Shown here: positions 1,866 through 20,388 of the stretch, one piece after another
Layout: every line of letters starts with the position of its first letter
Numbering within the stretch: position 1 is the stretch's first letter
From: Candidatus Omnitrophota bacterium
GTDB taxonomy: Bacteria > Omnitrophota > Gorgyraeia > Zapsychrales > JANLHA01
NCBI GenBank assembly: GCA_963662715.1
Contig: OY759724.1
Coordinates: forward strand, 240,001-272,000
Length of the DNA stretch: 32,000 nucleotides
Direction of reading: 5' to 3'
Program-made: the position numbers and the translations under genes
The notes under the pieces: generated by a model
Databases searched by the model: none
What the model saw: only the letters and a program-made list of their open reading frames with translations
What the model was told of the DNA's origin: nothing

Positions 1866-3644
1866 TTATTTTAAATAAAAACCCGAAAATTCTCTGACAA
1901 GATCTTCAAAAGGCACTAAAGCGGCTGTTTTAATGTCTCCTAATTTCTGACCTTGCCCCTGACAAAAACGCAGATATTTCTCCTGAATACGTTCTTCCGG
2001 ATCGATAAGGAACAAACGGCACGGACGGAGCTGCCCCAGCTGACGGCAATACCGGTAATGAAAATTCTTCTGCAGTCTTTCTTCCAGGTCCTCAAGAACG
2101 CTTTCCAAATCCCGGTATTCCTGCGGCTCTAACTGTATCAATAAAACATACCTGGCCGCCTGCCGGGACGGGAATCTTTCCGGGATAACTGTGTAAAATT
2201 TGGGATGAAGAGAATATTTCCGGAAAATTTCTTTCAACTGCAGGTCAACGAAACAGGCATTCATTTTTTCTCCGAACAAATCTATAACCCGGTCTTCTTT
2301 ACCGACAAAACGAATGAGCGGGCACTGCCGGAAGAACCCGACCACCTCAATCACATCTCTTAAGCGGTAACGATAAAGTCCTCCCCCTGTCGTTATGACG
2401 ACCGAATATCTCCTGCCTTCTCGCAGTTCGTGGGCCAAGCGAATGCCCGGACTTTCCGGGGGCCCGGATGAGCCGGAACGATCGTGTTCAATGAATTCAA
2501 AAAAATGCGAATGAATCGCCAGGGCGCTTCCCGGATGCCCGGCGAGCGGGAAAGAAACAAGCCCCTCTGTTGCGAGCAAGCCTTTGGGTTGGATATGAAC
2601 ATGCGGGAACCATGTTTTCAGTTCTTCCAGGGCGGTCCCGGCATGCCCGTCGGCCCAGCAGCTGATCACGTGCATATGCGGCCAGATTCTTTTCAGCAAG
2701 ACCGCTCTTGCGGCAACGGGACTTTCGCTGTCAGGGAATTCCTTAAAAATATCAGCCAATTCTCCCGCTCTTCTCTTATCGGCTTTTAAATACCGGTATA
2801 GCGCGGCGCGGGTGTCCTGATCGATATCAATAGCAGGGTTGATTTGTCCCCAGCGGATATCCAGGATGAAATCCCCGGCATATGTCCCGATGCAGCCTAA
2901 CAACAAGGATAAAAAAGACGGATTCCAAACAGAAATGAAGGAAAGGTCTTTCTCCGCCAGCAGGAATAAAACCGTGACATAGCGGAACGCGTCAATATGT
3001 TTTATCCGGCTGACCTCCCCAGGGACAGCCAGAAGTTTTTCGATCAATCTTTTTTCAAAACCGCTTAAATAATCACTATCATGACGGAATCCGACCGGGA
3101 TACGGCTCTCCGGAGAATCAAACTCAATGGCCGGGCTGATGGACCAGTAAGCCTTCCCGAAAAGCAGCTGAGGATGCTGCCGGTAAAGATCATAAATCCA
3201 CGGCCGTATGCCGTTTAAAAATTCCTGCTTCAGGCTTTTGGTGTAAGGGATTAATTTTGACGCTTCTGCGGATCCACTGGAAGGTTCAAGCAAGAAAACC
3301 GGGTCCCCTGTCAGGACCTGCGGCTCTCCGGCCAGGATCCTTTCAATGTAAGGCATAAATGACTGATAGGTCGCTAACGGGACATGCGCGCGGAAATCCG
3401 GGATACGGCGGACAGCGGAAAAAGAATGCTCCGCCCCGAAAATTGTGGAACGGCTGCGGGCGATAATGCGCCTTAAAATATCTTCCTGCCTCTTGGCCAC
3501 GGCCCGGCAGCCGAACCCGAACCTCACGGCGGGGAGCCAGCAGATAAGGACCCATAAGCTGTTCAGCAAAAAATAATAAAGTCTAAGACAATTCAAGGGC
3601 GGCCACCTTTTGTTCAGGGAGATCCCGGGCCGAGGCCTCCGCAT
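1866..3644 (-). CDS. GH3-family acyl-adenylate-forming amido synthetase (bacterial GH3 auxin-responsive-promoter family)
   Basis: 592 aa of typical bacterial GH3 length and layout: FG..HSF...IPDFRAHVPLATYQSFMPYIERI, then SSGSAEASKLIPYT (the AMP-forming P-loop-like motif), then YRYRLRDVIEVVGF. The maximal ORF overlaps the upstream rSAM gene by 62 nt. A TTG at 3596 preceded by AAGGTGG is a more plausible start. Confidence 0.8.
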   Translation of the reverse strand: MRRPRPGISLNKRWPPLNCLRLYYFLLNSLWVLICWLPAVRFGFGCRAVAKRQEDILRRIIARSRSTIFGAEHSFSAVRRIPDFRAHVPLATYQSFMPYIERILAGEPQVLTGDPVFLLEPSSGSAEASKLIPYTKSLKQEFLNGIRPWIYDLYRQHPQLLFGKAYWSISPAIEFDSPESRIPVGFRHDSDYLSGFEKRLIEKLLAVPGEVSRIKHIDAFRYVTVLFLLAEKDLSFISVWNPSFLSLLLGCIGTYAGDFILDIRWGQINPAIDIDQDTRAALYRYLKADKRRAGELADIFKEFPDSESPVAARAVLLKRIWPHMHVISCWADGHAGTALEELKTWFPHVHIQPKGLLATEGLVSFPLAGHPGSALAIHSHFFEFIEHDRSGSSGPPESPGIRLAHELREGRRYSVVITTGGGLYRYRLRDVIEVVGFFRQCPLIRFVGKEDRVIDLFGEKMNACFVDLQLKEIFRKYSLHPKFYTVIPERFPSRQAARYVLLIQLEPQEYRDLESVLEDLEERLQKNFHYRYCRQLGQLRPCRLFLIDPEERIQEKYLRFCQGQGQKLGDIKTAALVPFEDLVREFSGFYLK

Positions 3645-4938
3645 AATACCTGACTAATCTTCTGGAGTGGTGGCGGAAACTGAAACTCGCGGGCACTGTC
3701 ACCCATGGCAAATGGGGATGAAAAAGCGTTCTTCGCATGATGGATTTCAACGAATAGGTATGCGTCCAGAGCCACGAGAGACCATTCTGCAGCTGTTCGG
3801 GCGTCATGCGTGCGGGCTGAAACACCGCGTGTTCATAATCATATTTGTCCCAGTCATGGTGAAGGATTCTGCCGCCGGCCGTTAATTCTTGGTAAACAGC
3901 CGTTCCGGGAAAAGGGGTGAAGATCGTATAACGCACCAGATCTATTTTGACTTTATTAACAAATTCCAGGGTCCGTTCAAAAACCGAAGGGTCGTCTTCG
4001 TCAAAACCCAGGATGATGCACGCCATAACTCCAATTCCGTAATCATGCAGTTTACGGACAAGCGTCTGATATTTCTTCACCTGATTAAACCCTTTACTCA
4101 TTCTCCGCAGAGACGCCTGGGAAATGGTCTCGAAGCCCATCAACAGCCCCCGGCATCCGCTCCGGACAGCCAGGGAAAGCAGTTCATCATTTTCCGCGAT
4201 CTTGACCGTTGATAAACCGACCCATTTCACCTGCAGCGGGATCATGGCCTCATATAAGCTTTTCGTATAATGCAGATCTTCCGTCGGGCTCGGGTCAAGA
4301 AAAATAAAAGGCCCTCCTTCCATGCTTCGCATTTCCCGCACGACCTCTTCAACCGGCCTCTTGTAATAACGCAATCGTCTGGCCACAGGGACAGCGCAGA
4401 AGTGACACGTGTTCGGACAGCCTCTTGTGGCCATGATCGTCTGGGTTGTTAAATACCGGTCTTTTTTCAATAAATCCCTCCGGGGGTGCGGAAGTCCGGC
4501 TAAATATGTCTCGGGCTGATCGTCATAATACTTTCTCAACTGCCCTTTCTGAAAGTCCCGCAACAGCCGCGGCCAGCTCTTTTCGGCAAAACCAATAACG
4601 ACACAGTCAGCATGTTCAGCCGCCTCCTGAGGCAGGACCGTCGGATGCACCCCGCCCAAAACAACCGGGATGCCCCCGGCTCTTATTTTATCCGCCAAAA
4701 AATATGCCCGGGGGGCGGTCGCAGTACACGCGCTGATGCCTACGATATCGGCGTCCAGGTCCTCAGGCAGTTCTTCGACCCCTTCATCGACAATCCGGAC
4801 AACGGCATTCAATTCTTCGGGGACCAGGGCCGCCAAAAGCGTCAAGGTCAACGGCGGGTAAAGAATAGACCGGGTAAAGCTTCCGTCCCGGAACCTGTAT
4901 GTCGAATCGTAAGGTAAAATAAGAACAATTTTCAACAA
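3583..4938 (-). CDS. B12-binding domain radical SAM protein (class B rSAM), paralog 4
   Basis: N-terminal Rossmann-like B12 module (IVGISACTATAPRAY...VVLGGVHPT) followed by the radical SAM cluster motif CPNTCHFC. The start is a TTG (4938, or 4935 with AAGGAG upstream). Confidence 0.85.
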   Translation of the reverse strand: MLKIVLILPYDSTYRFRDGSFTRSILYPPLTLTLLAALVPEELNAVVRIVDEGVEELPEDLDADIVGISACTATAPRAYFLADKIRAGGIPVVLGGVHPTVLPQEAAEHADCVVIGFAEKSWPRLLRDFQKGQLRKYYDDQPETYLAGLPHPRRDLLKKDRYLTTQTIMATRGCPNTCHFCAVPVARRLRYYKRPVEEVVREMRSMEGGPFIFLDPSPTEDLHYTKSLYEAMIPLQVKWVGLSTVKIAENDELLSLAVRSGCRGLLMGFETISQASLRRMSKGFNQVKKYQTLVRKLHDYGIGVMACIILGFDEDDPSVFERTLEFVNKVKIDLVRYTIFTPFPGTAVYQELTAGGRILHHDWDKYDYEHAVFQPARMTPEQLQNGLSWLWTHTYSLKSIMRRTLFHPHLPWVTVPASFSFRHHSRRLVRYYAEASARDLPEQKVAALELS

Positions 4939-4954
4939 AAGCTCCTTATGATTT

Positions 4955-5674
4955 TCAAACGACGCTTTCCCCCATCACCTTGTAGGCGGCACGCTTCAAA
5001 TTATCTTCGGATATTTCCGCCAGGCAAACCAGCTCATCACCCAGACCATAATGAGGATTTTGGTTTAAAAAATACCGGACGTGAGGATTCCGCCGTCTTC
5101 TGTCATCGATGTCCGCCACGCCTTCTTTTAATCGCTCTCTGGACTGCTCAAAATGAATGACGCCGGTTTCCGCGTTATACTGCGACCCGAATCTTGCGTA
5201 AGCCAAAGTGTCCATCACCTGTTTTTCAAAGCCAGGAATGACCTGACCATGGCAGGGATAAAATCTCTTAAAATACACCGGCAAAAACCGGTATGTCTTA
5301 TACCCCATGCTAATAAGAAACCAGTAAAACTTCGGGAATGAATATTTTCTCCGCAGAGAGAGCATAAACTCAAGCCACACTCTTGCCAGCTCGCTGTCAC
5401 CCCAGAATTCTCTTTCTATGATCGTGTCCCCGGAAAAGACCGCCCACACGTTTTGCCCGAGGACCTCCTCCTGCATTAACCGCAGCGTTGAAAATCCGCG
5501 GATACACTGAGTGTCCTTATCCCGCAAAAGAATAACCCAGTCCTTTTCTTCCATATCCCGGGAGAAATTTTCCGCAGAGACATTTTCAAAATACGCCGCC
5601 AGTATTTCAAACATCCTCTGCTTCTCCTGCGGCAACAGCTCGGCAATATTCACAACACGCCCTTGGAGTTTCAT
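4955..5674 (-). CDS. hypothetical protein, possibly an acyltransferase (GNAT-like) fold
   Basis: 239-aa ORF with GAGGGG 6 nt before the ATG, in tight operon spacing (32 nt from the upstream gene and 16 nt to the downstream gene). The strand-then-helix pattern (WVILLRD...IRGFSTL...AVFSGDTII...ELARVWLEF) suggests a GNAT-like core, but I cannot name a family. Confidence 0.5.
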   Translation of the reverse strand: MKLQGRVVNIAELLPQEKQRMFEILAAYFENVSAENFSRDMEEKDWVILLRDKDTQCIRGFSTLRLMQEEVLGQNVWAVFSGDTIIEREFWGDSELARVWLEFMLSLRRKYSFPKFYWFLISMGYKTYRFLPVYFKRFYPCHGQVIPGFEKQVMDTLAYARFGSQYNAETGVIHFEQSRERLKEGVADIDDRRRRNPHVRYFLNQNPHYGLGDELVCLAEISEDNLKRAAYKVMGESVV

Positions 5675-5706
5675 GGTCGCCCCTCAATCCGGCAAAGGTC
5701 CGGTTA

Positions 5707-7047
5707 TTAGGTGAAGGCAAAAATACCTTTTTGTTTCAATAACATTTTAATCCCGACATTATGCACCAGGAGAGGCCAACGGTAAGGCCCGCTCCTTTTC
5801 GTTCTGTGAAGAATGGACCGTAAAGTCATCATCTGGGCTAAAAGTTCTTCTATGGCTGTCTGCAAAGACCTGCTGCCGGAAAAATTTTCATTCCGAATAA
5901 GGGCATAAGGGTTGTGTTTTTTCAGCCAGAACTTTTCATCCGTAAGCAGCCGCCGCCGCTTCAACGTCCGGTAAACCGGGGTCCCGGGGAAAGGATACAA
6001 GGGATTGAGCACAATCATCGGCACGGAATGTTCCGTTAAAAATCTTTTCGTCTGCACGAAAGTTTGTTCATCATCTTCCAGGAACCCCAGAATCATTCCC
6101 AAAACAAGAATGATCCTGTGCTTCTCCAGCCTCCTTAACACCGCCGAAAAATCCTGCGCCGTGTTGAATCCTTTATTAACCGAATTCAACGATTCGTCAT
6201 TAATGCTTTCCAGCCCCACAAAAACGGAATAGCAGCCAGAGCGGGATGCCGAGGCAACAAGCTCCTCGTCCTGACAGGATTGATAGGAAAAATATCCCGA
6301 CCAGTGAATACGGAGCGGCCGAAGGCTCTCGAATAAGCGCATGGCCCGGTCTTTTGACGTTGTCAAATTATCATCAACAAAAACAAAAAGCGGCTGCCTG
6401 ATCCCCGGATAATCTTTGAGGAAGCGTTTTATATCCTCAACGACCTCCTTTATGGGCCGGTACCGGATCCCCCCCCGGTAGACCTCAGGGGTACAGCAAT
6501 ACGCGCAATGATTCACGCAGCCCCGCGAAGTTTCTAAAGGAATTTTAGTCCCGTAAAAAGCGCTGTACAACTTCAAATTCAACAAATCAAAACGGGGGAA
6601 CGGCATCTGCTGCATGGAAAAACGTTCCGGAGAAAGATACCGCTGTTTCACGCAGCCGGATGCAAAATCGTTCCAGAACGCATCCCAGGAGGTTTCGATC
6701 TCTCCGCAGATGACCGCGTCGGCGAATCCGGCCGCCTCATCCGGACAGAGATTGACATGGTAACCGCCCAAGAGGACGAAGACACCCCTCTTCCTGAATT
6801 CCGCAGCCACCTCATACGCTCTTTGAGCCTGCGGTGTTTTAACGGAAATACCAACCAAATCATAAGGGACATCAAAATCAATATCCTGCAGGGTTTCATC
6901 AATAAGCGTGATATCCGCTTCCCGCGGGAAAAAAGAAGCCAAATACGGCAGGATGAAACTGGGGCACAAGCCTTTTTTGTGCCTCGACTTGTAAAGCCTG
7001 CCGGTTTGAAAATTATAATGTCCGGGCTGAACTAAAAGAATTTTCAT
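5707..7047 (-). CDS. B12-binding domain radical SAM protein (class B rSAM), paralog 3
   Basis: MKILLVQPGHYN..., LVGISVKTPQAQRAY, VLLGGYHVN, and cluster motif CVNHCAYC. The ATG at 7047 has AGGAAAC upstream and lies 10 nt after the stop of the preceding gene. The track's 7140 start would overlap that gene by 83 nt. Confidence 0.85.
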   Translation of the reverse strand: MKILLVQPGHYNFQTGRLYKSRHKKGLCPSFILPYLASFFPREADITLIDETLQDIDFDVPYDLVGISVKTPQAQRAYEVAAEFRKRGVFVLLGGYHVNLCPDEAAGFADAVICGEIETSWDAFWNDFASGCVKQRYLSPERFSMQQMPFPRFDLLNLKLYSAFYGTKIPLETSRGCVNHCAYCCTPEVYRGGIRYRPIKEVVEDIKRFLKDYPGIRQPLFVFVDDNLTTSKDRAMRLFESLRPLRIHWSGYFSYQSCQDEELVASASRSGCYSVFVGLESINDESLNSVNKGFNTAQDFSAVLRRLEKHRIILVLGMILGFLEDDEQTFVQTKRFLTEHSVPMIVLNPLYPFPGTPVYRTLKRRRLLTDEKFWLKKHNPYALIRNENFSGSRSLQTAIEELLAQMMTLRSILHRTKRSGPYRWPLLVHNVGIKMLLKQKGIFAFT

Positions 7048-7057
7048 CGTGTTTCCT

Positions 7058-8164
7058 TTACAATGTCGCCAGTTCAATATAAGGGATCCGTGAATCCAAA
7101 CCTTGAAAATCCCTGTCGCCGTCGGGCCAGCAGGCAACATAAACCCGGCTGCCTATCTTCAGGTTCGGGAATACGGCAACGGATTTATTCAAGGGGTCGT
7201 TTTCGTGCAATCCGATCATCATAAAATCATAACCCTTATTTAAGAATTCCCCAGCGGCCTCACGCAACAATGCTGTACTGACTTCTTGCCGGTCCTCTGT
7301 CACGGCAAGCCAGCTGACATAAAAATACCGGAAAGAGTCTCCCGCCCGGGGCCACACAGGATAGCCTTTCTGTTTCGCCCAGAAATTATAGAGCGGCCGG
7401 ATGAATTTCATCCTGCCCTGATATTGATGCACAACAATCTGTTTAAAACGGCTTTGATCCCAGCAGGCGCAGACGCCCAGGATCCGGTTGTTTTCTACGG
7501 CAATAAGAAAATTTTCGATCTTCAAATCCCGCAACAACGGCCCCGACGTTTTAAAATTTTCCTTATCAAAGAAGGGGAAAAACTGCTTGCGGGGTCCCTC
7601 CCGGCCCAGATAGGCCTCCACCTGGTCCAGCATGTCCGGGGAACCTTTGGTAATCTTTATCCCCGTCGGAGGAAGTTTCTTATGCGCCAGGGGGATAACA
7701 TAGGTATTCAGCTGACCGATATCATGATAATGCGGTAAGCCGGCCCGGCCGGAAACCAGGACCTCTTTGACGCGGGTGTTGTCGGCCATAATTGTGGTGA
7801 GATAAATCCGGGCGCGTTTATCTTCATGCAATTGCTTTAAGAAATGATACCCGCGGCCTAAAATCAGCCGGTTCCGGCAAGCCCGGCTGATACGCAAACT
7901 CCCCAAATATCCGACCCGGCTCAGTTTCCCGTTGACAAAGACTTCTCTGACTGAACGGCTGGCCAAACCGACAATCTTACCCGCCGCCTGATCCCGGACG
8001 ACAATCGTCTGATTCCATACCCCTTCCGTACAGGCAGCCTGAAAGTAATTCGGTTCGCGGGTGAAAAGCAGCGAGACCTCTCCCTCCATAGGGGACGCCT
8101 GAAGCAGAGCCCTGAGCTGGGCATCATCTTTCTCGCGAGCCAATTCAAAATGAAAACGGGCCAT
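7058..8164 (-). CDS. GNAT-family acyltransferase-like protein, apparently two-domain
   Basis: 368 aa. The N-terminus (ELAREKDDAQLRALL...IVGLASRSV...GYLGSLRISRACRNRLILGRGYHFL) fits a GNAT core with an R-x-x-G-x-G-like CoA loop. The C-terminal half looks like a second degenerate acyltransferase-type domain. Confidence 0.65.
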   Translation of the reverse strand: MARFHFELAREKDDAQLRALLQASPMEGEVSLLFTREPNYFQAACTEGVWNQTIVVRDQAAGKIVGLASRSVREVFVNGKLSRVGYLGSLRISRACRNRLILGRGYHFLKQLHEDKRARIYLTTIMADNTRVKEVLVSGRAGLPHYHDIGQLNTYVIPLAHKKLPPTGIKITKGSPDMLDQVEAYLGREGPRKQFFPFFDKENFKTSGPLLRDLKIENFLIAVENNRILGVCACWDQSRFKQIVVHQYQGRMKFIRPLYNFWAKQKGYPVWPRAGDSFRYFYVSWLAVTEDRQEVSTALLREAAGEFLNKGYDFMMIGLHENDPLNKSVAVFPNLKIGSRVYVACWPDGDRDFQGLDSRIPYIELATL

Positions 8165-8174
8165 AAAATTATCC

Positions 8175-9500
8175 CTAATTCAATCCTTTCCCCAAAGGCA
8201 GGCCCTGACGTTTGTCGACCTCTCTCCCGGAGAAAAAATTATATAAAATATAGTTCCATAACATAGAAACACCGTGACAGTTGCTGCGGGCGTCAAACCG
8301 TTGGGATATGGACCGGACAGAATAAAACTGCTGCCTGGCTCTCAGGCAGGCCCGGGAAAGATCCTCGGCCGACATTTTCCGGGGATGGAAAGCCACATCT
8401 CCGAATTTGTACCGAGGATCGAGCCACCAGTTGTCAGACAACAACCGTCCCTCAGACTTGAAATGACGATACAAAGGTGTCCCGGGAAACGGGACAAGGT
8501 GATTAAACGCCGCCAAAAACATTTTCTGCTTTATCGCAAACTCCAGCGTTTCTTGAACCGTATCCAGGGTGTCTTGATCATATCCGAAAACAAAAGTCCC
8601 GTAAATCACAATTCCGTGGTCCCGGAATCTCTGCAAAGCCTGCTCATAGGATCTGTATTGCAGGTTCCATTGTTTTCCCATTTGCGTCAAATTCTTCTGA
8701 TCCAACGACTCAAATCCCATTAAAACCCCCAGACAGCCGCTGGCTTTCATAAGAGTCAGCATACTCTCGTCATTCGCCATATCAATGCTCCCCTGGCTGA
8801 TCCACTTGATGTTCAACGGGATCAGGGCCTGAAAGAGCTGTTTCGCCCGCTGAGGATCACAGGTGATATTATCGTCGACAAAAAAGACGATGCTCTTACC
8901 TATCTGCCGGATCTCCTCAATGATTTCAGGGATGGGCCGGGGCCGGTATGTATGCCGGAAGAAACTGCTTACAGAACAAAACTGGCATGCATAAGGACAC
9001 CCCCTTGCCGATTCAATAAGCGTAACGGGAAGATACGTCTTCCGGTTAAAAATCGTTCTCTTGGCCCGGCATCCTTTCAGGACAGGGGCATCGTTCCTCT
9101 GATAAACGGTTCTCAATTGTTTGGCCCTGGCGTCTTCACAAATCTGTTCCCAGATGCCTTCGGCCTCGCCTATCAGAATGGCATCCGCATGCCGCCCTGC
9201 TTCCTGGGGAACGAGCGTCGGATGATATCCGCCCAGAACAACCGGAACGCCCCTTTGCCGGTATTCCCGGGCAATATGATAACTTCTTTTCGCCGTATAC
9301 GTTTCTACGTTGACGGCGACGAGATCCGTGGCCTCATCATAAGGGATGGGCTCAATCCTGTCATCGTAAAACCGGACCTCTATATCCTCAGGCGTTAATC
9401 CGGCCAACAGGGCTAAAGCCAGAGGCTCCATCTTCCATGACCTGACATACGGTTCATGATTTTTCCTGCCGACAGCAGGCATGATCAGAGTGATCTTCAT
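8175..9500 (-). CDS. B12-binding domain radical SAM protein (class B rSAM), paralog 2
   Basis: MKITLIMPAVG..., LVAVNVETYTAKRSY, VVLGGYHPT, and cluster motif CPYACQFC. The stop lies 10 nt before the next gene's ATG. Confidence 0.85.
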   Translation of the reverse strand: MKITLIMPAVGRKNHEPYVRSWKMEPLALALLAGLTPEDIEVRFYDDRIEPIPYDEATDLVAVNVETYTAKRSYHIAREYRQRGVPVVLGGYHPTLVPQEAGRHADAILIGEAEGIWEQICEDARAKQLRTVYQRNDAPVLKGCRAKRTIFNRKTYLPVTLIESARGCPYACQFCSVSSFFRHTYRPRPIPEIIEEIRQIGKSIVFFVDDNITCDPQRAKQLFQALIPLNIKWISQGSIDMANDESMLTLMKASGCLGVLMGFESLDQKNLTQMGKQWNLQYRSYEQALQRFRDHGIVIYGTFVFGYDQDTLDTVQETLEFAIKQKMFLAAFNHLVPFPGTPLYRHFKSEGRLLSDNWWLDPRYKFGDVAFHPRKMSAEDLSRACLRARQQFYSVRSISQRFDARSNCHGVSMLWNYILYNFFSGREVDKRQGLPLGKGLN

Positions 9501-9536
9501 AAATACAAGCCCTTTCCGGCTCGGGATATTGAAACA

Positions 9537-10874
9537 TCAGGACATCCTCCTGCCCGGAGATATTTTTATTTCTGCGGGGAAACGGTCCTGATCAACGGAT
9601 AAACGATGGATATACAGCCTGTAAGCCAGATTGCCGACGAATTTAACCATAAAGGACCGGTCCAGCCCGCTGACTCTTTTCCAAATGGAAGGATATTGAA
9701 AAGTCTTCCGGTAAGCCCAGCGAAACCCCTGGTCGAGTTCCTGCGGGCTCATCTGTGAGGGCTGAAAAACAACGTGCTGCGTATCATAATAGGACCAATG
9801 ATTGTGAAGGATCCGCCCCTCTTCCTTGAGTCTTTGATAGGCCCTTGTTCGGGGATACGGCGTGTAAACGGCGTATCGCGGGATGTCGATTTTCAGTTCA
9901 TTGACAGCGTCAACCGTATCCTTGAAAACATTCCGGTCGTCATGGTCAAAACCGAACACAAAGCATCCCTGCAGAATTATGCCTTTATCATGAATTTTCT
10001 TAACCAGGTCCGCGTAATTCTGCGGACGGTTAAAACCTTTTTTTATCCCATACAAGGCTCTTTGGGAAACCGACTCGAATCCGATCAATAAATAAATACA
10101 TCCGCTGCGGCTCATCAACTCAAGCAACTCGTCATCCTGGCCTATCTCCGTTGTACATAAGCCCCCCCAGACTTTTTTCAAAGGGGCGAGCGCTGTGAAA
10201 AGCTCCTTCGCGTAATCCCGGTCTTCCAGCAGACTCACATCATTAAAAGCAATCCTCCGGGCTTTGATCTGCCTGATTTCGTCAATCACTTCGTGAACAG
10301 GACGCGTGTTCCATCCGAAAGGAACCGCACTGACCGCGCAAAAGTCGCAGGACCGTCTGCATCCCCGGGTAGCGAAAACGGTATAGGGATTCATGTAGCC
10401 CCACTGTTTCTGCAAGTCTCTTCGTGGACAGGGCAGGCCGGAAAGATGCGAGTCGTGAGACTCATATACATCTTTGAGTTTTCCGCAAGAAAAATCCCGG
10501 AGCAATTGAGGCCATGTCTGTTCAGCAAAACCGAGCACAATACTGTGGGCATGCTGTCCCGCCTCCTGAGGCATCAGGGAAACATGGACCCCGCCCAAAA
10601 CAACCGTCGCGCCCCGCCGCCGGAAGTGGCCAGCAAGGGCATACGCTCTGACAGACGTGCCCGTCAGGCAGCTTATGCCGACCAGATCAAAATCCTGCTT
10701 CAGCGGGACAGCCTCAAGGCTTTCATCTATAATTGTGACCTCGGCATTCAATTCAGGAGGGACCAGCGCGGCTAATGTCGTAAGCGTCAACGGCGCTTCG
10801 CGAAAAGACACCGCATGTCCCCCTATATTCATTTTATGGATACCGGCATCCGGCATTATTAACAAAATTTTCAT
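9537..10874 (-). CDS. B12-binding domain radical SAM protein (class B rSAM), paralog 1
   Basis: MKILLIMPDAG..., LVGISCLTGTSVRAY, VVLGGVHVS, and cluster motif CRRSCDFC. The track start at 10880 is a TTG two codons upstream of the ATG at 10874. Confidence 0.85.
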   Translation of the reverse strand: MKILLIMPDAGIHKMNIGGHAVSFREAPLTLTTLAALVPPELNAEVTIIDESLEAVPLKQDFDLVGISCLTGTSVRAYALAGHFRRRGATVVLGGVHVSLMPQEAGQHAHSIVLGFAEQTWPQLLRDFSCGKLKDVYESHDSHLSGLPCPRRDLQKQWGYMNPYTVFATRGCRRSCDFCAVSAVPFGWNTRPVHEVIDEIRQIKARRIAFNDVSLLEDRDYAKELFTALAPLKKVWGGLCTTEIGQDDELLELMSRSGCIYLLIGFESVSQRALYGIKKGFNRPQNYADLVKKIHDKGIILQGCFVFGFDHDDRNVFKDTVDAVNELKIDIPRYAVYTPYPRTRAYQRLKEEGRILHNHWSYYDTQHVVFQPSQMSPQELDQGFRWAYRKTFQYPSIWKRVSGLDRSFMVKFVGNLAYRLYIHRLSVDQDRFPAEIKISPGRRMS

Positions 10875-10923
10875 AGGCAACTCTTGTCGATATCTGTTAT
10901 CCCAACGGGGTGAAATCTTATAA

Positions 10924-12575: not shown

Positions 12576-12998
12576 TTACGGGGACTGTGATTCAAGCCAC
12601 TGCTGAATTTTCTCTTTAATATCATCCCTGACTTCCCGCACCTTATGAAGGATTTCTTCTTCTGAGCCGGTAAACTTTGAAGGGTCAGGGAAACTCCAAT
12701 GAAGCCTGTTGACATCCCCGGGAAAAACAGGGCACTGTTCCGCCGAGGCTTCATCGCACACCGTGATAACATAATCATAGCTCTTCTTCTGCCGCATCAG
12801 ATCTTCGACACCGCGCGTTTTTTTCCCCCGGATATCAAGGCCTTCTTCTTTCAGCGCTTCTACGACAAAGGGGTTCAATTCCCCGGGGGCCAGACCGGCG
12901 CTGTCCACATCGAAATGCTCCCCCCCGCATATCCGCAACAACTCCTCGGCCATCTGACTTCTGGCGGAATTATGAACACAGACGAATAAAACTTTCAT
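12576..12998 (-). CDS. arsC: arsenate reductase, LMW-PTPase / thioredoxin-coupled type
   Basis: MKVLFVCVHNSARSQMAE P-loop (C-x5-R-S) plus downstream Cys residues (VITVCDEASAEQCPVFPG), typical of the Staphylococcus/Bacillus-type ArsC family. Confidence 0.85.
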   Translation of the reverse strand: MKVLFVCVHNSARSQMAEELLRICGGEHFDVDSAGLAPGELNPFVVEALKEEGLDIRGKKTRGVEDLMRQKKSYDYVITVCDEASAEQCPVFPGDVNRLHWSFPDPSKFTGSEEEILHKVREVRDDIKEKIQQWLESQSP

Positions 12999-13014: not shown

Positions 13015-13971
13015 CTAAATAATTACGGATTGAAGGAAATTAAACATATAGCCGGTCAGGATAATGGCTGCCGCCGTGATACCGAAAAAAATCATAATCA
13101 AGGGTAATCTCATCGCCCGGCGAAGCATGATGGCTTCCGGCAGGCTCAAGGCGGCAATGGCCATCATGAAGGCCAATGCCGTTCCCAAAGGGATGCCTTT
13201 TTGGAACAAAACAACGGCGATCGGAACAATAGCCGCGCAGCTGCCATACATCGGCACGCCTAAGGCTGTTGCGATCGGGACCGAAAAAATACCGGTTTTC
13301 TGGATAATGCCCTGGACGGCTTCCTGCGGAACGTAATTGTGGATCAGGGCTCCTATGCCGACCCCGATCAAAACCCACATCCAAATCTTTCTTGTAATGG
13401 AAAGAGCCTCATGCCAGCCGTAGGCTATGCGGCTTAAAAGCGATGGATAACGGACCGGCTTCTGGACCTGCTGCCTGGCGATCATATCCGCAACAAGGTA
13501 CGAGTCCAAATCCATCTTACCTAAGACAGCTCCGGCAACGGTTCCGATCAGCAGCCCGCTTAATACGTAGAGGAATGTGATTTTCCAGCCGAAAAACCCC
13601 AGCATCAAAACAACCAGATATTCATTAATAATAGGAGAGGTAATGAGAAAAGAAAAAGTAACCCCGAGGGGAATACCCGCTTCTAAAAAACCGAGAAATA
13701 TCGGGATGGACGAACAGGAGCAAAATGGCGTCATGGCCCCAAAAGAAGCGGCCAGAATATTGCCCGACAGCGCCCTTTTTTTGATCCACCCCTTAATTTT
13801 CTCCTGTGACAAGAAAGAACGGAAAAAGCCCATAATAAATATCATTGAAAAAAGCAAAAAAATAATTTTAATAGAATCATAAATAAAAAAATGAACAGTC
13901 TTGCCCAAAGATGATTCCGGAGAGAGCCCCAGGAGCATATAAGCGAACCAGTCAGCAAATGTCAGCAGCAT
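13015..13971 (-). CDS. arsP: COG0701 / ArsP-type permease
   Basis: 318-aa polytopic membrane protein with the family signature [14 protein letters not shown] and a second half containing [12 protein letters not shown]. It lies between arsR and arsC. Confidence 0.75.
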
Positions 13972-14114
13972 GACGGTCCTTTGTCCTGATCACCCTTCCC
14001 CCGGCAACAGCATGAATTTTTTGCCTTTTTTTCCATCGCCTTGTCCATTTTCTCCATAAAGCGTTCCAGCCACCCTTTTTGTTTCACCTCTGGTCTCTTT
14101 TCTTTATCCGTCAT
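13962..14114 (-). CDS. unannotated 50-aa Cys-rich small protein in the ars operon
   Basis: Hand translation: [55 protein letters not shown] lies 7 nt upstream of the ATG. Its stop overlaps the permease start (ATGCTGCTGA), which suggests translational coupling. It is below the ORF track's length cutoff. Confidence 0.5.
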
Positions 14115-14151
14115 AATATCGCTCCTTTTTTTAGGGTTATCGCAGAAAAAT

Positions 14152-14505
14152 TCAATTTCGGCAAAGCCTGCTCCGGTCGGCTGTTTTCAGCCTGACAATG
14201 TCCTTTTTTAAAACCGGGTCATCTTTCAACCAGCGGGCCAGACATTTCAAAAGTTCTTTTGTTCGGTCTGAATCACAGCACAAAATATAATTCGTCCAAA
14301 ACCCGTCCTTTTCATCCCTGATCAGTTCGAGTTCTTTCATTTTTTTCAAATGCCGGGAGATGCTCGGTTGAGTTACCTGCAGGACATAGGCCAGTTCACA
14401 CACGCACATTTTTCTTTGTTTAAGAAGACAAAGAATTCTTATACGGTTTTTGTCTGCAAAAATTCTGAATATTTTTTCAATCCCTTGCATCATAGAAGAA
14501 TCCAT
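14152..14505 (-). CDS. arsR: ArsR/SmtB-family metalloregulator
   Basis: Contains the CVCEL metalloid-binding motif (KMCVCELAYVLQVTQPSISRHLKKMKELELI) immediately before the HTH. Confidence 0.85.
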   Translation of the reverse strand: MDSSMMQGIEKIFRIFADKNRIRILCLLKQRKMCVCELAYVLQVTQPSISRHLKKMKELELIRDEKDGFWTNYILCCDSDRTKELLKCLARWLKDDPVLKKDIVRLKTADRSRLCRN

Positions 14506-14549
14506 ATAACCAATCTGTTATATATTATACCGAAACGCCTTTTTGTCAA
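14504..14549 (-). promoter_or_regulatory. ars promoter (TTGACA-16-TAATAT) and inverted repeat ATATAAC-N6-GTTATAT
   Basis: Minus strand reads cTTGACAaaaaggcgtttcggTATAATATATAACagattgGTTATATGgat. The 7-bp inverted repeat (14504-14523) touches the arsR ATG. No SD is visible. Confidence 0.45.
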
Positions 14550-14839: not shown

Positions 14840-15064
14840 TTAATTCTGGTCTAAACATTCACATTGCGGGCCGGAGAAGATGTCCCATTTAAAAGAATGC
14901 CCGTCATGGCCCTGTTCAATACAGCTCGCCTGACACTCATTAGCCCGGCTTTCCGATTCTTTATTTTTTATATAAGCAAAATGCAATAAATAAATAATAA
15001 CCGGAACAATTAAGGCAAATAATATTATTGTGCGCATGGAACCAATGGGGTTGTCTCTAAACAT
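14840..15064 (-). CDS. hypothetical small membrane-anchored protein with 4 Cys
   Basis: 74 aa, with one TM (TIILFALIVPVIIYLLHFAYI) followed by ...ECQASCIEQGHDGH...GPQCEC. No family recognised. Confidence 0.4.
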   Translation of the reverse strand: MFRDNPIGSMRTIILFALIVPVIIYLLHFAYIKNKESESRANECQASCIEQGHDGHSFKWDIFSGPQCECLDQN

Positions 15065-15265: not shown

Positions 15266-15694
15266 CTAAAATTCTATCTGCGTTTGTCCTCGGTCTTCCC
15301 GGCCTTGATATTCGATGTATCGCTTTATCGATTCTTCGTCGGCTCCAACCGTTGACACAAAATACCCTGCTGACCATATCCCTGCCTTTTTCACATACAT
15401 CTTGTCTAAAAACTTATATCGCCGCCTCATCAGCTTTGCTGTGTTACTCTTAATCAGATTTACTGCATGACTTACAGCCATCTTCGGCGGAATTGATGCC
15501 AAAAGATGCATATGATCTAAATCTGTATTTACTTTTTCAATGATGATCTCAGGATACCGTCTCATCACTCCCAAAACGCATCTTTTGACATACTCCGCCG
15601 AACCCCATCGCAATATCTTTCGCCTATATCTTGTACAAATGACAATATGGTATCTGGCATAGTAAACTGTGTGTCCTTGCTTCAAATATCTCAT
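15266..15694 (-). CDS. tnpA: IS200/IS605-family Y1 (HUH) transposase
   Basis: 142 aa: YHIVICTRYRRKIL, HUH motif DHMHLL, and catalytic-Tyr region GYFVSTVG. Confidence 0.9.
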   Translation of the reverse strand: MRYLKQGHTVYYARYHIVICTRYRRKILRWGSAEYVKRCVLGVMRRYPEIIIEKVNTDLDHMHLLASIPPKMAVSHAVNLIKSNTAKLMRRRYKFLDKMYVKKAGIWSAGYFVSTVGADEESIKRYIEYQGREDRGQTQIEF

Positions 15695-16599: not shown

Positions 16600-19500
16600 T
16601 TATTCTGCTAGCATAAGCTGCGCTTGGGCGGTTTCCTTTTTGCCGGCTTGATCCATAACAGATATCTGCACAGTCCATTCCCTGCCGCCTCTCAAATGTG
16701 ATTCATCAATACGCATAACCCAGTCATTCTGCGCCTGGCTTTTAAAAGGACCGCCGACCTTTTTAAACCGCTTGGCCTTTTTGCCCCTTCCCACACCTAT
16801 CGTAAACTCCTGAAACGGACCGCGCACGGTCGCAAAAACATCCACGTAATCGATCCTTCTCTTCCGCTCCTGTTTCTGTATCCTTAACTCATTAATCCTA
16901 ACAGTTATTAAACCTTCAGGAGCTGTTCTTAAGGCTTCTGAAGCATTTAATAAGCCGGCCCCGGACTGATCGTCCCAGCCGGGGGAATACATGTCAACGG
17001 CCGTGGCCGTGAGGATATCTTCAATCTGCTCGTTCGTAAAGGCAGGATTATGCGCCAGCATCAAAGAAGCGGTCGCAGCAACCATCGGGGAGGCAAAAGA
17101 CGTTCCCGATTGAGTATAATACAAAGCGTTGCTTCCTTTATACCGTCCTTTTTTAAATGAATCCACGGAACGCAACGAATACACGTCTTCCCCCGGGGCA
17201 AGTAACCCATTATTAGCCCCCCAGTTGGAAATTGGGCTTCTCTCCCCGTTCATATCCAAAGATCCTACCGGGAAAATCCCTTTGGCAGAAGCCGGGCCGT
17301 GTTCCGAGATATTCTCGTTCACATTGCCGCTGGCGACTGTTATAAACGCGCCTTGTTCATAGGCCGCATTGATGGCCGCCTGTTCCATTTCAGAAACACC
17401 GCGGTTCCCCAGGCTGATATTTATCACCCGGGCTCCGTGATTGACCGCATAACGGACCGCACGGTAAATATTAAGGCTTGTGGCCTCTCCCTCTTCGTCA
17501 GCAACTTTCAGAGGCATAATGACAGCCCCGGGATTAATGCCGGCTATCCCGATTTGGTTATCCGTTTTAGCCGCAATAATACCGGCCACAAATGTCCCGT
17601 GACCTTTACGGTCGGTCAAATCATTGCTATTATCGATGAAGTTCCATCCGTGCACGTCGTCCACATACCCGTTAAGGTCATCATCCCGACCGTTTCCGGG
17701 GATTTCATTCTCATTCGTCCAGATATATTCCGGGCCGTCGGGATGCGTCATATCCAATCCGGAGTCGATGACCGCGACCAGGACATTCTTCTCCTGCCCG
17801 TCAATAACATTCCAGGCCGAATCAGGATCCGACTTAGGCGTAAAGCCGATTACGGATAAACCCCATTGATTTTCAACATCTTTTTTCTTTCCCCCTCCCG
17901 ATATCTCTCCAAACCCCAAGTTCAAACCACCTTCCGGTTTACTGCCCCCGAATATCCCCAGGAGCTTTTTCTTTTTTGCCTTTTGGGGTCCCAGGAAAAA
18001 CGGATCATTGGGGGTCTCCAAAGAAACGGCCTGATTCTTTTTCTTCCTGCGCTGCTCCAATTCCGAAGGACGAGGTTCGACTATTTTGCTGACTAATGTA
18101 CTTACCGCCTGTTTTAATAGTCCCTGAGGAGCAACCTTTTGAATATATTCGACAATACTCTGGGCCTGGCCGGCTTTCTCCAAGGCTTCCAAAATCGCTG
18201 CCGGGTTATTCTTAAGCTCTTCCTGAGAAATATTCCTTGCCAGAGAACCATCAGCGCCAAAAACAGCAAGAGCATTCTCGCCATTTGTTTTCCCGCAGGC
18301 CAAAACAGGGCCGTCGACCTGAATCTGCCGGGACGCATCCTGCCCGTACTCAGCAGAACCTGCGCCCGTATCTCCGGATATTTCCGGAGGGGTCTTCCCA
18401 AAATTTCTAACAGTAAAGCCGCTGAAACAATCATCGGTGTAATGTCGTTTCTCTCCCAATCCCTCCGCAAGAAGGCCGGCCATATCCTCAAGGGTCCCGA
18501 CCGTAACCTTTCCGCCGGTCAAGGCAGCCAATTTTTCAATCTCTGCCAGTTCTTGAGCGTTGACTTTAGCTAAAGCCATAACTGATTTCGGCGAGAAATT
18601 TTTTAATGACACCGGATCAAAATCCTTATTTAAAACAAAACGTGGCAACAGCGTTTCTATAACTACGGCCGCATAGGTGGCCTTGAACTTTTTGATATCA
18701 AAACACAGATGACAATCTTCGCCGCGGGGGATACACATCTGGTCAAGAGAAGCCTCTTCCTTTCCTGCGCCGGGGTAGAGTGCCGGGGTAGGGGTTGCGA
18801 GGGGCATCTGCCGCGAAGGATATTTACACGTACCCGGACAGGGCCCGCTTCTTAAATGACGTTCCAGACAGGAATCCTGCTGCTGAAGCTTAGGCTCACA
18901 GGTATGGCAGAACACCCCGTGAACCATGGTCTCCTCGCATCTTTCTGTCTGCCTGCGACACGTCCCGGGGCATGGCCCCACATACATCTCGTATTCGTCA
19001 CATGCCTGATCAGCGAGTCTTTTAGGGATACACAGATGGCAGGATGCCTCATCGACATAAGTCTTCATGCATACTTCCGTAGCGGCATTACAGGCAGGAC
19101 AGGGGCCGGGCAACATGTCGCCCTTCTCACATTCGTTTTTGGCTTCCTTGGGAGCACGGCACTGGTAACAATACCCCTCGGCCACACAAAGATAAAGTTT
19201 TTGACAGTTTTCCTCCTTGCATAATCCGACTTTCCAGCCGTCATAACACTCGATTCCTTTTATTTTACACTCATGACACACAGCTTTTCCCACACTCCCG
19301 TCCACACAGTAATGGCCCTCATCGATCTTGCAAGAGCCGGGACAACTGCCGGGAAAAAGCTCGCATTCCGCGCAAACATCTTCCTGGTCATCCGTCCGTT
19401 CTTTACACTGATAACACGGGCCATCGATGGGAAGGCACATCTCTCCTTTCGCACATGTCCCGTCCAAACAAAGCCCCGGCACATAGCCGACCGGGCAGTT

Positions 19501-20388
19501 GACCGAAGGCCAGCATCTATGGCAGTTTTCCCCCTCGACGGAAAAATTATCACAATTTTCACCCGTTTTACACGAGCCAGGACACAGACCGGCAAACATA
19601 TCCTTTTTCTGGCACTTTGCGGCCTGCCCCTCTTTTATACACTCCCAGCACGGCTTATCAAAATCATCTGTTCTTCTGCGGACACACTTTCCTTTATCCT
19701 TACACACCGCCCAGCACGCGTCATAATCCCCCGGGTAGCCGAGGTCAGAACAGGTCTTTTTGGGGGCACAGGCATGGCAGGCCGCGCCGTCCACCGGGAT
19801 GTAGGAACACTTCTCCTTGGCCTTGCTACATGTCCCGGGACATGATCCCGGCAGCAGTTCACGCTGTCCGCATTTGGCTTTGTCTTCTTCCCCCTTTTTG
19901 ACGCATTTTTTACATTGAAGTCTATATCCCGGGGGGGTATAAGAAATACAGGCCATGTCCTTACGGTCGCAGGTACTGCAATGGGAACCGACATCATCAC
20001 CAAAGTCGTAACACGACTTGCCTTTATCCATCGAGAGACATTCGCAGCAATAGGTTCCGTCTTTTATAACAACCGTAGAACAGTACGTCCCGGACTCATA
20101 ACAGGAGGCTTTTTTCCCCTTGGCCTCACATTTTTCTTTCAGGGTTTTCCCTATACATTTGTCAGCCGCCTCATCACACTCCTGGCCGGATTCACAGGGG
20201 ATATCCAGCTTCTGATAACATTTCCCGTTAGCCGCACAAAATTCCGTCCCGTTACAAAACAGGCCGTCATCGCAGTCCGGATCATTCACACATTTTTCTT
20301 TGGACGCATGCTGATCCCCCCAGGAGTGGGCAGGACATAATAAAGAGGAAAAGAATACCAGGGATAATACCAGAAAGAATTTCTTCAC
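16600..20388 (-). CDS. secreted subtilisin-like (S8) serine protease with a long N-terminal array of Cys-rich modules
   Basis: GTG start with GGAGGG 7 nt upstream, and a signal peptide (MKKFFLVLSLVFFSSLLCPAHS). Residues ~33-563 are Cys-rich repeats. The S8 triad motifs are VAVIDSGLD (D875, nt 17764-17766), HGTFVAGIIAA (H930, nt 17599-17601) and SGTSFASPMVAA (S1096, nt 17101-17103). Confidence 0.85.
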   Translation of the reverse strand: MKKFFLVLSLVFFSSLLCPAHSWGDQHASKEKCVNDPDCDDGLFCNGTEFCAANGKCYQKLDIPCESGQECDEAADKCIGKTLKEKCEAKGKKASCYESGTYCSTVVIKDGTYCCECLSMDKGKSCYDFGDDVGSHCSTCDRKDMACISYTPPGYRLQCKKCVKKGEEDKAKCGQRELLPGSCPGTCSKAKEKCSYIPVDGAACHACAPKKTCSDLGYPGDYDACWAVCKDKGKCVRRRTDDFDKPCWECIKEGQAAKCQKKDMFAGLCPGSCKTGENCDNFSVEGENCHRCWPSVNCPVGYVPGLCLDGTCAKGEMCLPIDGPCYQCKERTDDQEDVCAECELFPGSCPGSCKIDEGHYCVDGSVGKAVCHECKIKGIECYDGWKVGLCKEENCQKLYLCVAEGYCYQCRAPKEAKNECEKGDMLPGPCPACNAATEVCMKTYVDEASCHLCIPKRLADQACDEYEMYVGPCPGTCRRQTERCEETMVHGVFCHTCEPKLQQQDSCLERHLRSGPCPGTCKYPSRQMPLATPTPALYPGAGKEEASLDQMCIPRGEDCHLCFDIKKFKATYAAVVIETLLPRFVLNKDFDPVSLKNFSPKSVMALAKVNAQELAEIEKLAALTGGKVTVGTLEDMAGLLAEGLGEKRHYTDDCFSGFTVRNFGKTPPEISGDTGAGSAEYGQDASRQIQVDGPVLACGKTNGENALAVFGADGSLARNISQEELKNNPAAILEALEKAGQAQSIVEYIQKVAPQGLLKQAVSTLVSKIVEPRPSELEQRRKKKNQAVSLETPNDPFFLGPQKAKKKKLLGIFGGSKPEGGLNLGFGEISGGGKKKDVENQWGLSVIGFTPKSDPDSAWNVIDGQEKNVLVAVIDSGLDMTHPDGPEYIWTNENEIPGNGRDDDLNGYVDDVHGWNFIDNSNDLTDRKGHGTFVAGIIAAKTDNQIGIAGINPGAVIMPLKVADEEGEATSLNIYRAVRYAVNHGARVINISLGNRGVSEMEQAAINAAYEQGAFITVASGNVNENISEHGPASAKGIFPVGSLDMNGERSPISNWGANNGLLAPGEDVYSLRSVDSFKKGRYKGSNALYYTQSGTSFASPMVAATASLMLAHNPAFTNEQIEDILTATAVDMYSPGWDDQSGAGLLNASEALRTAPEGLITVRINELRIQKQERKRRIDYVDVFATVRGPFQEFTIGVGRGKKAKRFKKVGGPFKSQAQNDWVMRIDESHLRGGREWTVQISVMDQAGKKETAQAQLMLAE

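Follow-up and report, generated by a model that had tools for sequence, protein, structure and literature searches.

Within a 32,000-nucleotide (nt) stretch of a Candidatus Omnitrophota genome (contig OY759724.1, positions 240,001 to 272,000; hereafter the window), a small open reading frame (ORF) of 50 codons plus TGA lies on the minus strand at 13962..14114 (ATG 14114..14112, stop 13964..13962), between the genes for an ArsR/SmtB-family repressor and an ArsP_1 (PF03773) permease. We find that its product represents a new, widespread and unnamed protein family, while the thiol-rich helper of a metal(loid) transporter is already known as a kind, and that it is almost certainly a real, functional partner of the permease. 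The ORF had been proposed in an earlier note made from the sequence alone, and its translation is exactly as claimed there; the assignment to the minus strand is added here.

The features which that note had read at both ends of the ORF are present. A Shine-Dalgarno (SD) motif, AGGAG, sits 7 nt 5' of the ATG (14122..14126, minus strand), and the TGA overlaps the permease ATG within a 10-nt stop/start overlap, ATGCTGCTGA (13962..13971, minus strand), that forms the translational coupling junction; the last codons of the small ORF, TCA TGC TGC TGA, thereby include the permease ATG. The note had further called the ORF hidden, which is true of the ORF track with its length cut-off, but the exact product of 50 amino acids (aa) is already a called protein in NCBI/ENA (P0001).

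Conservation, coding selection and anatomy of the small protein

The family was revealed through synteny, because single-sequence searches are nearly blind to it: a word-indexed search returned the window protein itself as the only match, and phmmer found nine short relatives among 1.84 billion representatives. With the permease as query, we collected 80 loci at 62-74% identity, drawn from different GTDB species and comprising, as labelled, about 45 Omnitrophota, about 15 metagenome-assembled genomes (MAGs) of Planctomycetota, about 16 archaeal MAGs (Woesearchaeota/Nanobdellota, Methanosarcinales and Micrarchaeota) and a few others. In 68 of these 80 loci, we detected a homologous ORF, 29-60 aa long, that ends 7-19 nt into the permease gene. 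When the misses were re-inspected, loci L027 and L034 turned out to carry the ORF as well, two contigs were cut within it, and eight loci truly lacked it, so that the search around related permeases which the earlier note had suggested yields a homologous overlapping ORF in 70 of 78 assessable loci, in Bacteria as well as Archaea. The linkage also holds in reverse: when metagenome contigs were scanned with nothing but the peptide pattern KLDKKME, 40 loci were confirmed, 39 of which have the permease directly downstream (with an overlap of 10-16 nt in 37), while the remaining contig stops 119 nt past the ORF. At one permease locus (L008, ~3001-3030) we noted an in-frame stop at codon 8 of the permease (MLLKFAD*), which reflects either a pseudogene or an assembly error.

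The geometry of the junction is preserved to a similar extent, as the coupling claimed in the earlier note would have it. The overlap measures 7, 10, 13, 16 or 19 nt in 67 of 68 loci, and the relative frame of the two genes is always identical. An SD-like motif lies ahead of 48 of 61 small ORFs (background 10%), and an own SD-like motif is found at only 28 of 61 permease starts. Judged by gene order and junction geometry, the small ORF and the permease gene form a single unit of inheritance and translation, joined by a conserved stop/start overlap.

A profile search of 5.8 billion proteins extended the family to at least 247 clusters. The 120 clusters listed are 42-64 aa long, carry no Pfam domain and, where they are named at all, are named only 'hypothetical protein'. 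The closest relative is a called gene of 49 aa in Ca. Velamenicoccus archaeovorus LiM, at about 1,387,940-1,388,089 of CP019384.1, which shares 55% identity with the window protein and likewise lies between an HTH_5 and an ArsP_1 gene. Altogether, the family is conserved in more than 100 independent loci of two domains of life; a search of PLSDB yielded no plasmid-borne copy.

Several lines of evidence bear on whether these ORFs are translated into a selected product. Mean pairwise identity among the small-ORF homologues is 0.62, 0.76 and 0.39 at codon positions 1, 2 and 3, respectively, and the conserved Leu, Asp, Lys, Ala and Cys columns draw on all synonymous codons. For the 93 pairs in which dS is not saturated, the dN/dS ratio after Nei and Gojobori (NG86) shows a median of 0.16 and stays below 0.5 in each pair. 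By these substitution patterns, the small ORF is a protein-coding gene under purifying selection. Its shortness and its low-complexity, Lys/Glu-rich composition might instead be those of a chance ORF, or of a purely nucleotide-level feature of the permease 5' region. This reading, to which we assign a practically negligible probability, is refuted by the conservation across both domains, by the third-position wobble and low dN/dS, which denote coding selection, by the SD motifs 5' of the start codons, and by the fact that independent gene callers have annotated the gene.

Other readings of the region were tried and set aside as well. The earlier note had named a structured leader of the permease gene as the alternative to its proposal; such a leader, or a riboswitch, is not supported, given that Rfam has no match in the small-ORF region, that this region folds worse than its shuffles (z=+1.62), and that the junction shows no excess of structure across 69 loci (mean z -0.54). 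Selenocysteine read-through of the TGA is excluded by the mixture of stops that terminate the small ORFs (TAA in 35 loci, TGA in 17, TAG in 16). A programmed frameshift fusion was rejected too, as permeases without the small ORF begin at the same Met.

The window protein starts with a Lys-rich N-terminus, continues in a helix and ends in a flexible polar tail, where vicinal Cys form two clusters. An AlphaFold2 (AF2) prediction, fed with 69 homologues, gave a single helix for residues 13-33 (14016..14078, minus strand) with a predicted local distance difference test score of about 77-84, both ends being disordered. The hydrophobic moment of this helix is 0.48, compared to 0.24±0.12 for shuffles, which makes it amphipathic. 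Together with a net charge of +5 (family mean +5.8), this agrees with the basic, helical N-terminal half that had been read from the sequence, and the five Cys that had been counted within the final 16 residues are likewise there. They form a first cluster, C35-C36-C37 (14004..14012, minus strand), and a C-terminal vicinal pair, C49-C50 (13965..13970, minus strand), which is located inside the first three permease codons. No hydrophobic segment, signal peptide or transmembrane (TM) segment was found in the window protein. As modelled, the small protein is a cytosolic helix with a Cys tail.

Across the family, these elements follow the pattern K-G-[FW]-[FLW]-x2-[LIMF]-x3-[LM]-D-K-x-[ML]-x2-K for the helix, then CC(C) ... 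(S)CC near the C-terminus. In the numbering of the window protein, the invariant or near-invariant positions are K13, G14, L23, D24, K25, K26, K30, C36, C37, C49 and C50. The window protein satisfies the pattern, keeping K13, G14, D24, C36, C37, C49 and C50, and matches the profile with E=8e-13. Asp24 is a family-invariant position inside the helix, and an invariant Asp in a basic helix suggests a specific protein contact. The tails contain four Cys in 40 loci and five in 26, in two clusters that are spaced by 5-13 polar residues; in archaeal members, which are shorter, the tail reads CCCC...C and the overlap is 7 nt. Of 68 sequences, 62 and 63, respectively, have Cys in the two main aligned columns of the first cluster, which falls outside the permease overlap, and TGC as well as TGT codons are used there; the terminal pair is Cys in 68 and 57 of 68. 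Hence, both the Cys pattern and the purifying selection for which the earlier note had proposed a check are borne out.

Proposed role and its alternatives

The genes around the family members give some indication of its role. In a count over 120 loci with a median length of 5.7 kb, we found a DUF134 regulator in 37 loci, ArsR in 31, an LMW-PTP-type ArsC in 23, Acr3 in 18, Thioredoxin_3, ArsF-like and ArsG/DsbD_2-like proteins in 10 each, and ArsM in 2. Other family loci show metal contexts, with ZIP, NRAMP, RND, VIT1 or CorA genes. In four loci, the small protein is itself a domain of a larger one: it is fused in frame to the C-terminus of LMW-PTP ArsC in L011 (2453-3010) and L030 (1406-1963), with no possible internal start in the latter, and to the C-terminus of DUF5661 in L033 (2606-2998) and L095 (1440-1835). 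All four fusions still overlap the permease start. The DUF134 protein (about 100 aa, with a helix-turn-helix) stands directly 5' of the small ORF in the place of ArsR, for example at 34-336 of L051; it has a Cys-rich N-terminus and a GGCC near its C-terminus, and may be an uncharacterised thiol- or metal-sensing regulator of the module formed by small ORF and permease.

From the composition of the protein, its linkage to the permease, the ars-type neighbourhoods of about 45% of the loci and the two ArsC fusions, we infer a role in metalloid binding or as a chaperone. Specifically, we see an even chance that the small protein is a cytosolic accessory or chaperone that captures substrate for the permease with its thiol tail. 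In such a mechanism, the helix and the basic N-terminus would dock at the cytoplasmic face of the permease or of the membrane, while the thiolate tail would capture a thiophilic substrate, be it the As(III) that ArsC releases, a trivalent organoarsenical, Sb(III) or a soft metal. By ligand exchange, the tail would then pass the substrate to the CSC motif of the permease for export, in a manner that can be likened to ArsD feeding ArsA or to the C-terminal CC tail of MerA. In the window permease, this signature thiol motif is Cys84-Ser85-Cys86 (TPFCSCSS; 13714..13722, minus strand, read from the translation). The idea has precedent in that distant homologues of the permease are paired with other small thiol proteins, namely Thioredoxin_3 and GDCCVxC proteins. 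Arsenicals are the likely substrate in the window, because the module is part of an ArsR-controlled arsR-small ORF-permease-arsC operon. For the family as a whole the substrate is less certain, since many members are found in non-arsenic metal contexts (VIT1, CorA, RND, ZIP), and it may comprise thiophilic metal(loid)s at large, not arsenic in particular.

A number of observations weigh against such a role. The only ArsP tested for export of trivalent organoarsenicals is that of C. jejuni, which exports MAs(III) and Rox(III), not As(III), and for which no helper is known (PMC6205960). An arsenic-type neighbour, one or more, occurs in only ~45% of loci; the closest relative, in Ca. Velamenicoccus archaeovorus, lies among VIT1, Metal_resist and CorA genes, and one further family member adjoins an RND efflux system. 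No fusion to the permease itself was found, where concatenated profiles of the small protein and the permease N-terminus gave one short match, which is a weak negative. Finally, some of the conservation at the C-terminus is imposed by the overlap with the permease initiation region: only A or G can stand before TG, as this base opens the permease start codon, a codon that follows NNA must start with TG, and the frequent K-G found 4-5 residues before the end supplies an AAGG Shine-Dalgarno motif for the permease.

The codon choice in the permease, on the other hand, allows selection on the overlap to be told apart from selection on the peptide. The second terminal Cys demands that Leu2 of the permease be encoded by CTG or TTG, and such a YTG codon is found in 58 of 69 loci, whereas YTG accounts for 40% of 3229 Leu codons elsewhere in these genes (p=6e-14). 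In permeases without an overlapping small ORF, residue 2 is Ile, Val, or a Leu encoded by TTA or CTT. Because of this excess, and because residue 2 varies when the ORF is absent, the terminal CC is, on codon evidence, itself under selection.

Apart from capturing substrate for the permease, the cysteines could serve as a thiol buffer or co-substrate, with the peptide acting as a phytochelatin- or metallothionein-like ligand that sequesters metal(loid)s, or as part of a conjugate handled by the permease, in either case without docking. The presence of four or five Cys in a flexible polar tail, the stoichiometric production of the peptide with the permease, and hosts that are mainly Omnitrophota and DPANN-type archaea would be in keeping with this. 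However, the helix with its invariant Asp and the conserved K-G-F-F favour a specific protein contact over a generic sink, one peptide per permease makes for a poor buffering capacity, and a secondary permease with 8-10 TM segments is unlikely to move a peptide of 5.6 kDa, so that we regard a buffer as improbable. An equally small probability goes to a subunit or regulator that does not bind substrate but stabilises, assembles or gates the permease in the way of MntS, AcrZ or MgtS, with the cysteines as a switch for redox or thiol stress. Such a protein would explain the obligate linkage and translational coupling, and the frequent thiol-redox neighbours (Trx_3, DsbD_2/ArsG-like, TrxB) would suit it, whereas the ArsC fusions link the peptide to the product of arsenate reduction, not to a generic redox state, and vicinal CC pairs are typical ligands of soft metal(loid)s, as in ArsD, MerA and MerT.

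It is also conceivable, if a little less probable still, that the small ORF acts as a regulatory upstream ORF or leader peptide, whose translation controls that of the permease, for instance because ribosomes pause at Cys codons under a shortage of Cys-tRNA or because the nascent chain binds a metalloid, and whose released peptide is functionless. The stop/start overlap and the lack of an own SD motif at about half of the permease starts are what such control would need, the Cys codons are clustered within the final 16 codons, and the conserved part of some 38 aa would correspond roughly to the length of the ribosomal exit tunnel. Yet purifying selection spans the whole amphipathic helix while synonymous change is free, the domain is retained at the C-terminal end of fusion proteins with ArsC and DUF5661, a conserved RNA structure that could be remodelled is lacking, and transcriptional control by ArsR or DUF134 is already present in the operon. 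Last, the peptide could be the precursor of a ribosomally synthesised and post-translationally modified peptide (RiPP), with the helical part as leader and the Cys-rich part as core, matured by a radical SAM enzyme and exported by the permease. SCIFF/ranthipeptide precursors have a leader-plus-Cys-core layout that this one resembles, four genes for B12-binding radical SAM enzymes lie 3-10 kb from the small ORF in the window, and such a gene occurs in 6 of the 80 loci. We nevertheless deem a RiPP precursor very improbable: the permease is the only invariant partner, with no conserved maturase; a SCIFF/ranthipeptide-type precursor, which would call for a family model match and an obligatory adjacent radical SAM maturase, was rejected, as NCBIfam gave no SCIFF or RiPP match and radical SAM genes occur in only those 6 loci; moreover, the operon and the radical SAM genes of the window are set apart by a MarR gene and an unrelated membrane protein.

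In its boldest form, to which we give somewhat less than an even chance, the proposal would make the small protein the first chaperone or substrate-capturing subunit that is dedicated to a secondary (non-ATPase) permease for metalloids or metals: a helix-anchored thiolate of about 45 aa, encoded in a coupled two-gene module across Omnitrophota, Planctomycetota and DPANN/Methanosarcinales archaea, whose ArsC fusions, present in some lineages, would channel As(III) to the exporter without its entering the cytosol. ArsD is the only arsenite metallochaperone described (PMC6205960), and secondary permeases of the ArsP, Acr3 or ArsB type have no known helper. Should the function hold, arsenic and soft-metal resistance would gain a component, a testable model would be at hand for the route by which thiophilic substrates arrive at the CSC site in PF03773 permeases, and a further case would be added to the functional proteins of fewer than 50 aa that annotation has missed or left unnamed. 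The family also provides a clean marker for a specific permease subfamily, one that is frequent among uncultured Omnitrophota and DPANN archaea.

Comparison with known systems

The small-protein family has no match in Pfam (window protein and 69 members), NCBIfam or PDB, and we found no paper on it in the literature, in agreement with the earlier view that it is neither ArsD nor any other named ars component. ArsD possesses the vicinal cysteines Cys12-Cys13-Cys18 as well as C-terminal CC pairs; As(III) bound by its vicinal cysteines is delivered to a component of a transporter. Like the small protein, it is a cytosolic product of ars operons whose gene is always adjacent to that of its partner (PMC6205960). 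It was the first arsenite metallochaperone to be described and serves the ArsA ATPase (PMC6205960). Unlike the window protein, which has 50 aa, a single helix and a secondary PF03773 permease as partner, ArsD has about 120 aa, a thioredoxin-like fold and an ATPase (ArsA) as partner; the ArsD family (PF06953) was rejected on these grounds and because Pfam found no match to it in the window protein or 69 members.

Closer in context is the GDCCVxC (seleno)protein (NF041374), a small, Cys-rich protein whose gene lies directly 5' of, and overlaps, that of a PF03773 permease in the ars cluster of the Sulfuricella plasmid pSCD. At this locus (L122, Sulfuricella denitrificans, 2190-2408), the GDCCVxC gene overlaps the annotated permease start within an arsC-acr3-…-arsM cluster, and the extra C-terminal tail of its product, ...GHSCCEGNKS, converges on the ...KGSSCC of the small family. 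In contrast to the latter, the GDCCVxC protein has 72 aa and is zinc-ribbon-like, with CxxC pairs and the motif that gives it its name. Membership of the small protein in this family of 58 model positions was rejected, with no NCBIfam match at E<=1 and an hhalign probability of 3.4%.

In cultured bacteria, homologues of the permease (about 45% identity, annotated 'permease') almost always adjoin a Thioredoxin_3 protein of about 77 aa, often within arsC/acr3/arsF/arsG clusters, and such pairs are present on plasmid loci L121, L123, L124, L125 and L126; the pairing appears to be conserved. Like the small family, this protein of the 'redox-active disulfide protein 2' type is a cytosolic thiol protein beside a permease, but its fold is that of a globular thioredoxin, with one CxxC. 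As both proteins are encoded together in some loci, it is not a simple replacement for the small peptide.

Two further proteins share the C-terminal Cys pair. SaoC, which ends in CC-COOH, is encoded beside the ArsP-family exporter SaoE with its CSC motif, the most conserved motif of SaoE/SO_0444 relatives, and an interaction with heavy metals has been proposed for it (bioRxiv 10.1101/2022.07.06.499078). The CC-COOH end and the neighbouring CSC-motif permease are all that it has in common with the small family; it is a secreted lipoprotein of about 158 aa with a signal peptide, encoded in a nine-gene locus. SaoC (NF040734) gave no NCBIfam match, and the N-terminus of the window protein is Lys-rich, not hydrophobic. 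The DUF466 proteins YbdD and YjiX are small, cytosolic, end in RCC-COOH and are found beside CstA-type transporters (bioRxiv 10.1101/2022.07.06.499078). Unlike the small ORF, however, the DUF466 gene is located downstream of its transporter, which carries pyruvate or peptides, and has no metal context. Bacterial metallothioneins, FeoB-associated Cys-rich proteins and DUF466 were all rejected for want of a PF02069, PF12669 or PF04328 match.

In size, the small protein compares to MntS, AcrZ, KdpF and MgtS, proteins of about 30-50 aa which act by binding a specific transporter. These modulators are mostly membrane-spanning and none has a Cys-rich tail; to our knowledge, none is coupled to its transporter via a stop/start overlap either. 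Considering these cases together, the pairing of a CSC-motif permease with a small protein rich in thiols recurs, and the present family is a new version of it, unrelated to the others and much smaller.

The operon and other genes of the window

The four genes of the operon lie on the minus strand in the order arsR-small ORF-permease-arsC, and both flanks of the small ORF are as the earlier note had assigned them. The ArsR/SmtB-family repressor gene (14152..14505) encodes 117 aa with matches to Pfam HTH_5 (E=4.5e-17) and NCBIfam NF033788. Its sequence contains a CVC motif (KMCVCELAYVL) within the DNA-binding helix region, which we take to resemble the As(III) site of R773 ArsR. The permease gene (13015..13971) encodes 318 aa and matches Pfam ArsP_1 with E=3.9e-64 (217 bits); the protein falls under the NCBIfam cut-offs of the SaoE and SO_0444 equivalogs, and fits ArsP on its PF03773 membership and its conserved cysteine motif (CSC, residues 84-86). 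The arsenate reductase ArsC (12576..12998, 140 aa) is of the LMW-PTP type (Pfam LMWPc, E=7.9e-20) and scores E=1.5e-33 against TIGR02691, under the cut-off of that model. We read from its sequence a CX5R motif plus a C81/C88 pair, an arrangement that presumably matches pI258 ArsC. A TTGACA-16 nt-TAATAT site 5' of arsR (14522..14549, minus strand), which is a consensus match only, at 10 of 12 positions, is likely the promoter of the operon. No Acr3 or ArsB is encoded within the 32-kb window.

Upstream of the operon, a 74-aa ORF (14840-15064) shows a weak, non-significant similarity (E about 0.004-0.009) to small membrane proteins of the FeoB-associated Cys-rich and SA1362 families, and an IS200-like Y1 transposase gene (15266-15694, minus strand) is situated about 750 nt upstream of the putative promoter. 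Still farther upstream, the minus strand at 16600-20388 encodes a protein of 1262 aa, the first ~550 residues of which are extremely Cys-rich repeats (…GxCPGxC…CHxC…), while its C-terminus is a subtilase (Peptidase_S8, E=3e-52). On the other side of the operon, the B12-binding radical SAM genes mentioned above follow one another on the minus strand at 3583-4938, 5707-7140, 8175-9500 and 9537-10880. They belong to a stretch (1866-10880, minus strand) with two interspersed ORFs that have no Pfam match and a GH3-family (PF03321) gene at 1866-3644, which as a whole looks like a tailoring or biosynthetic cluster.

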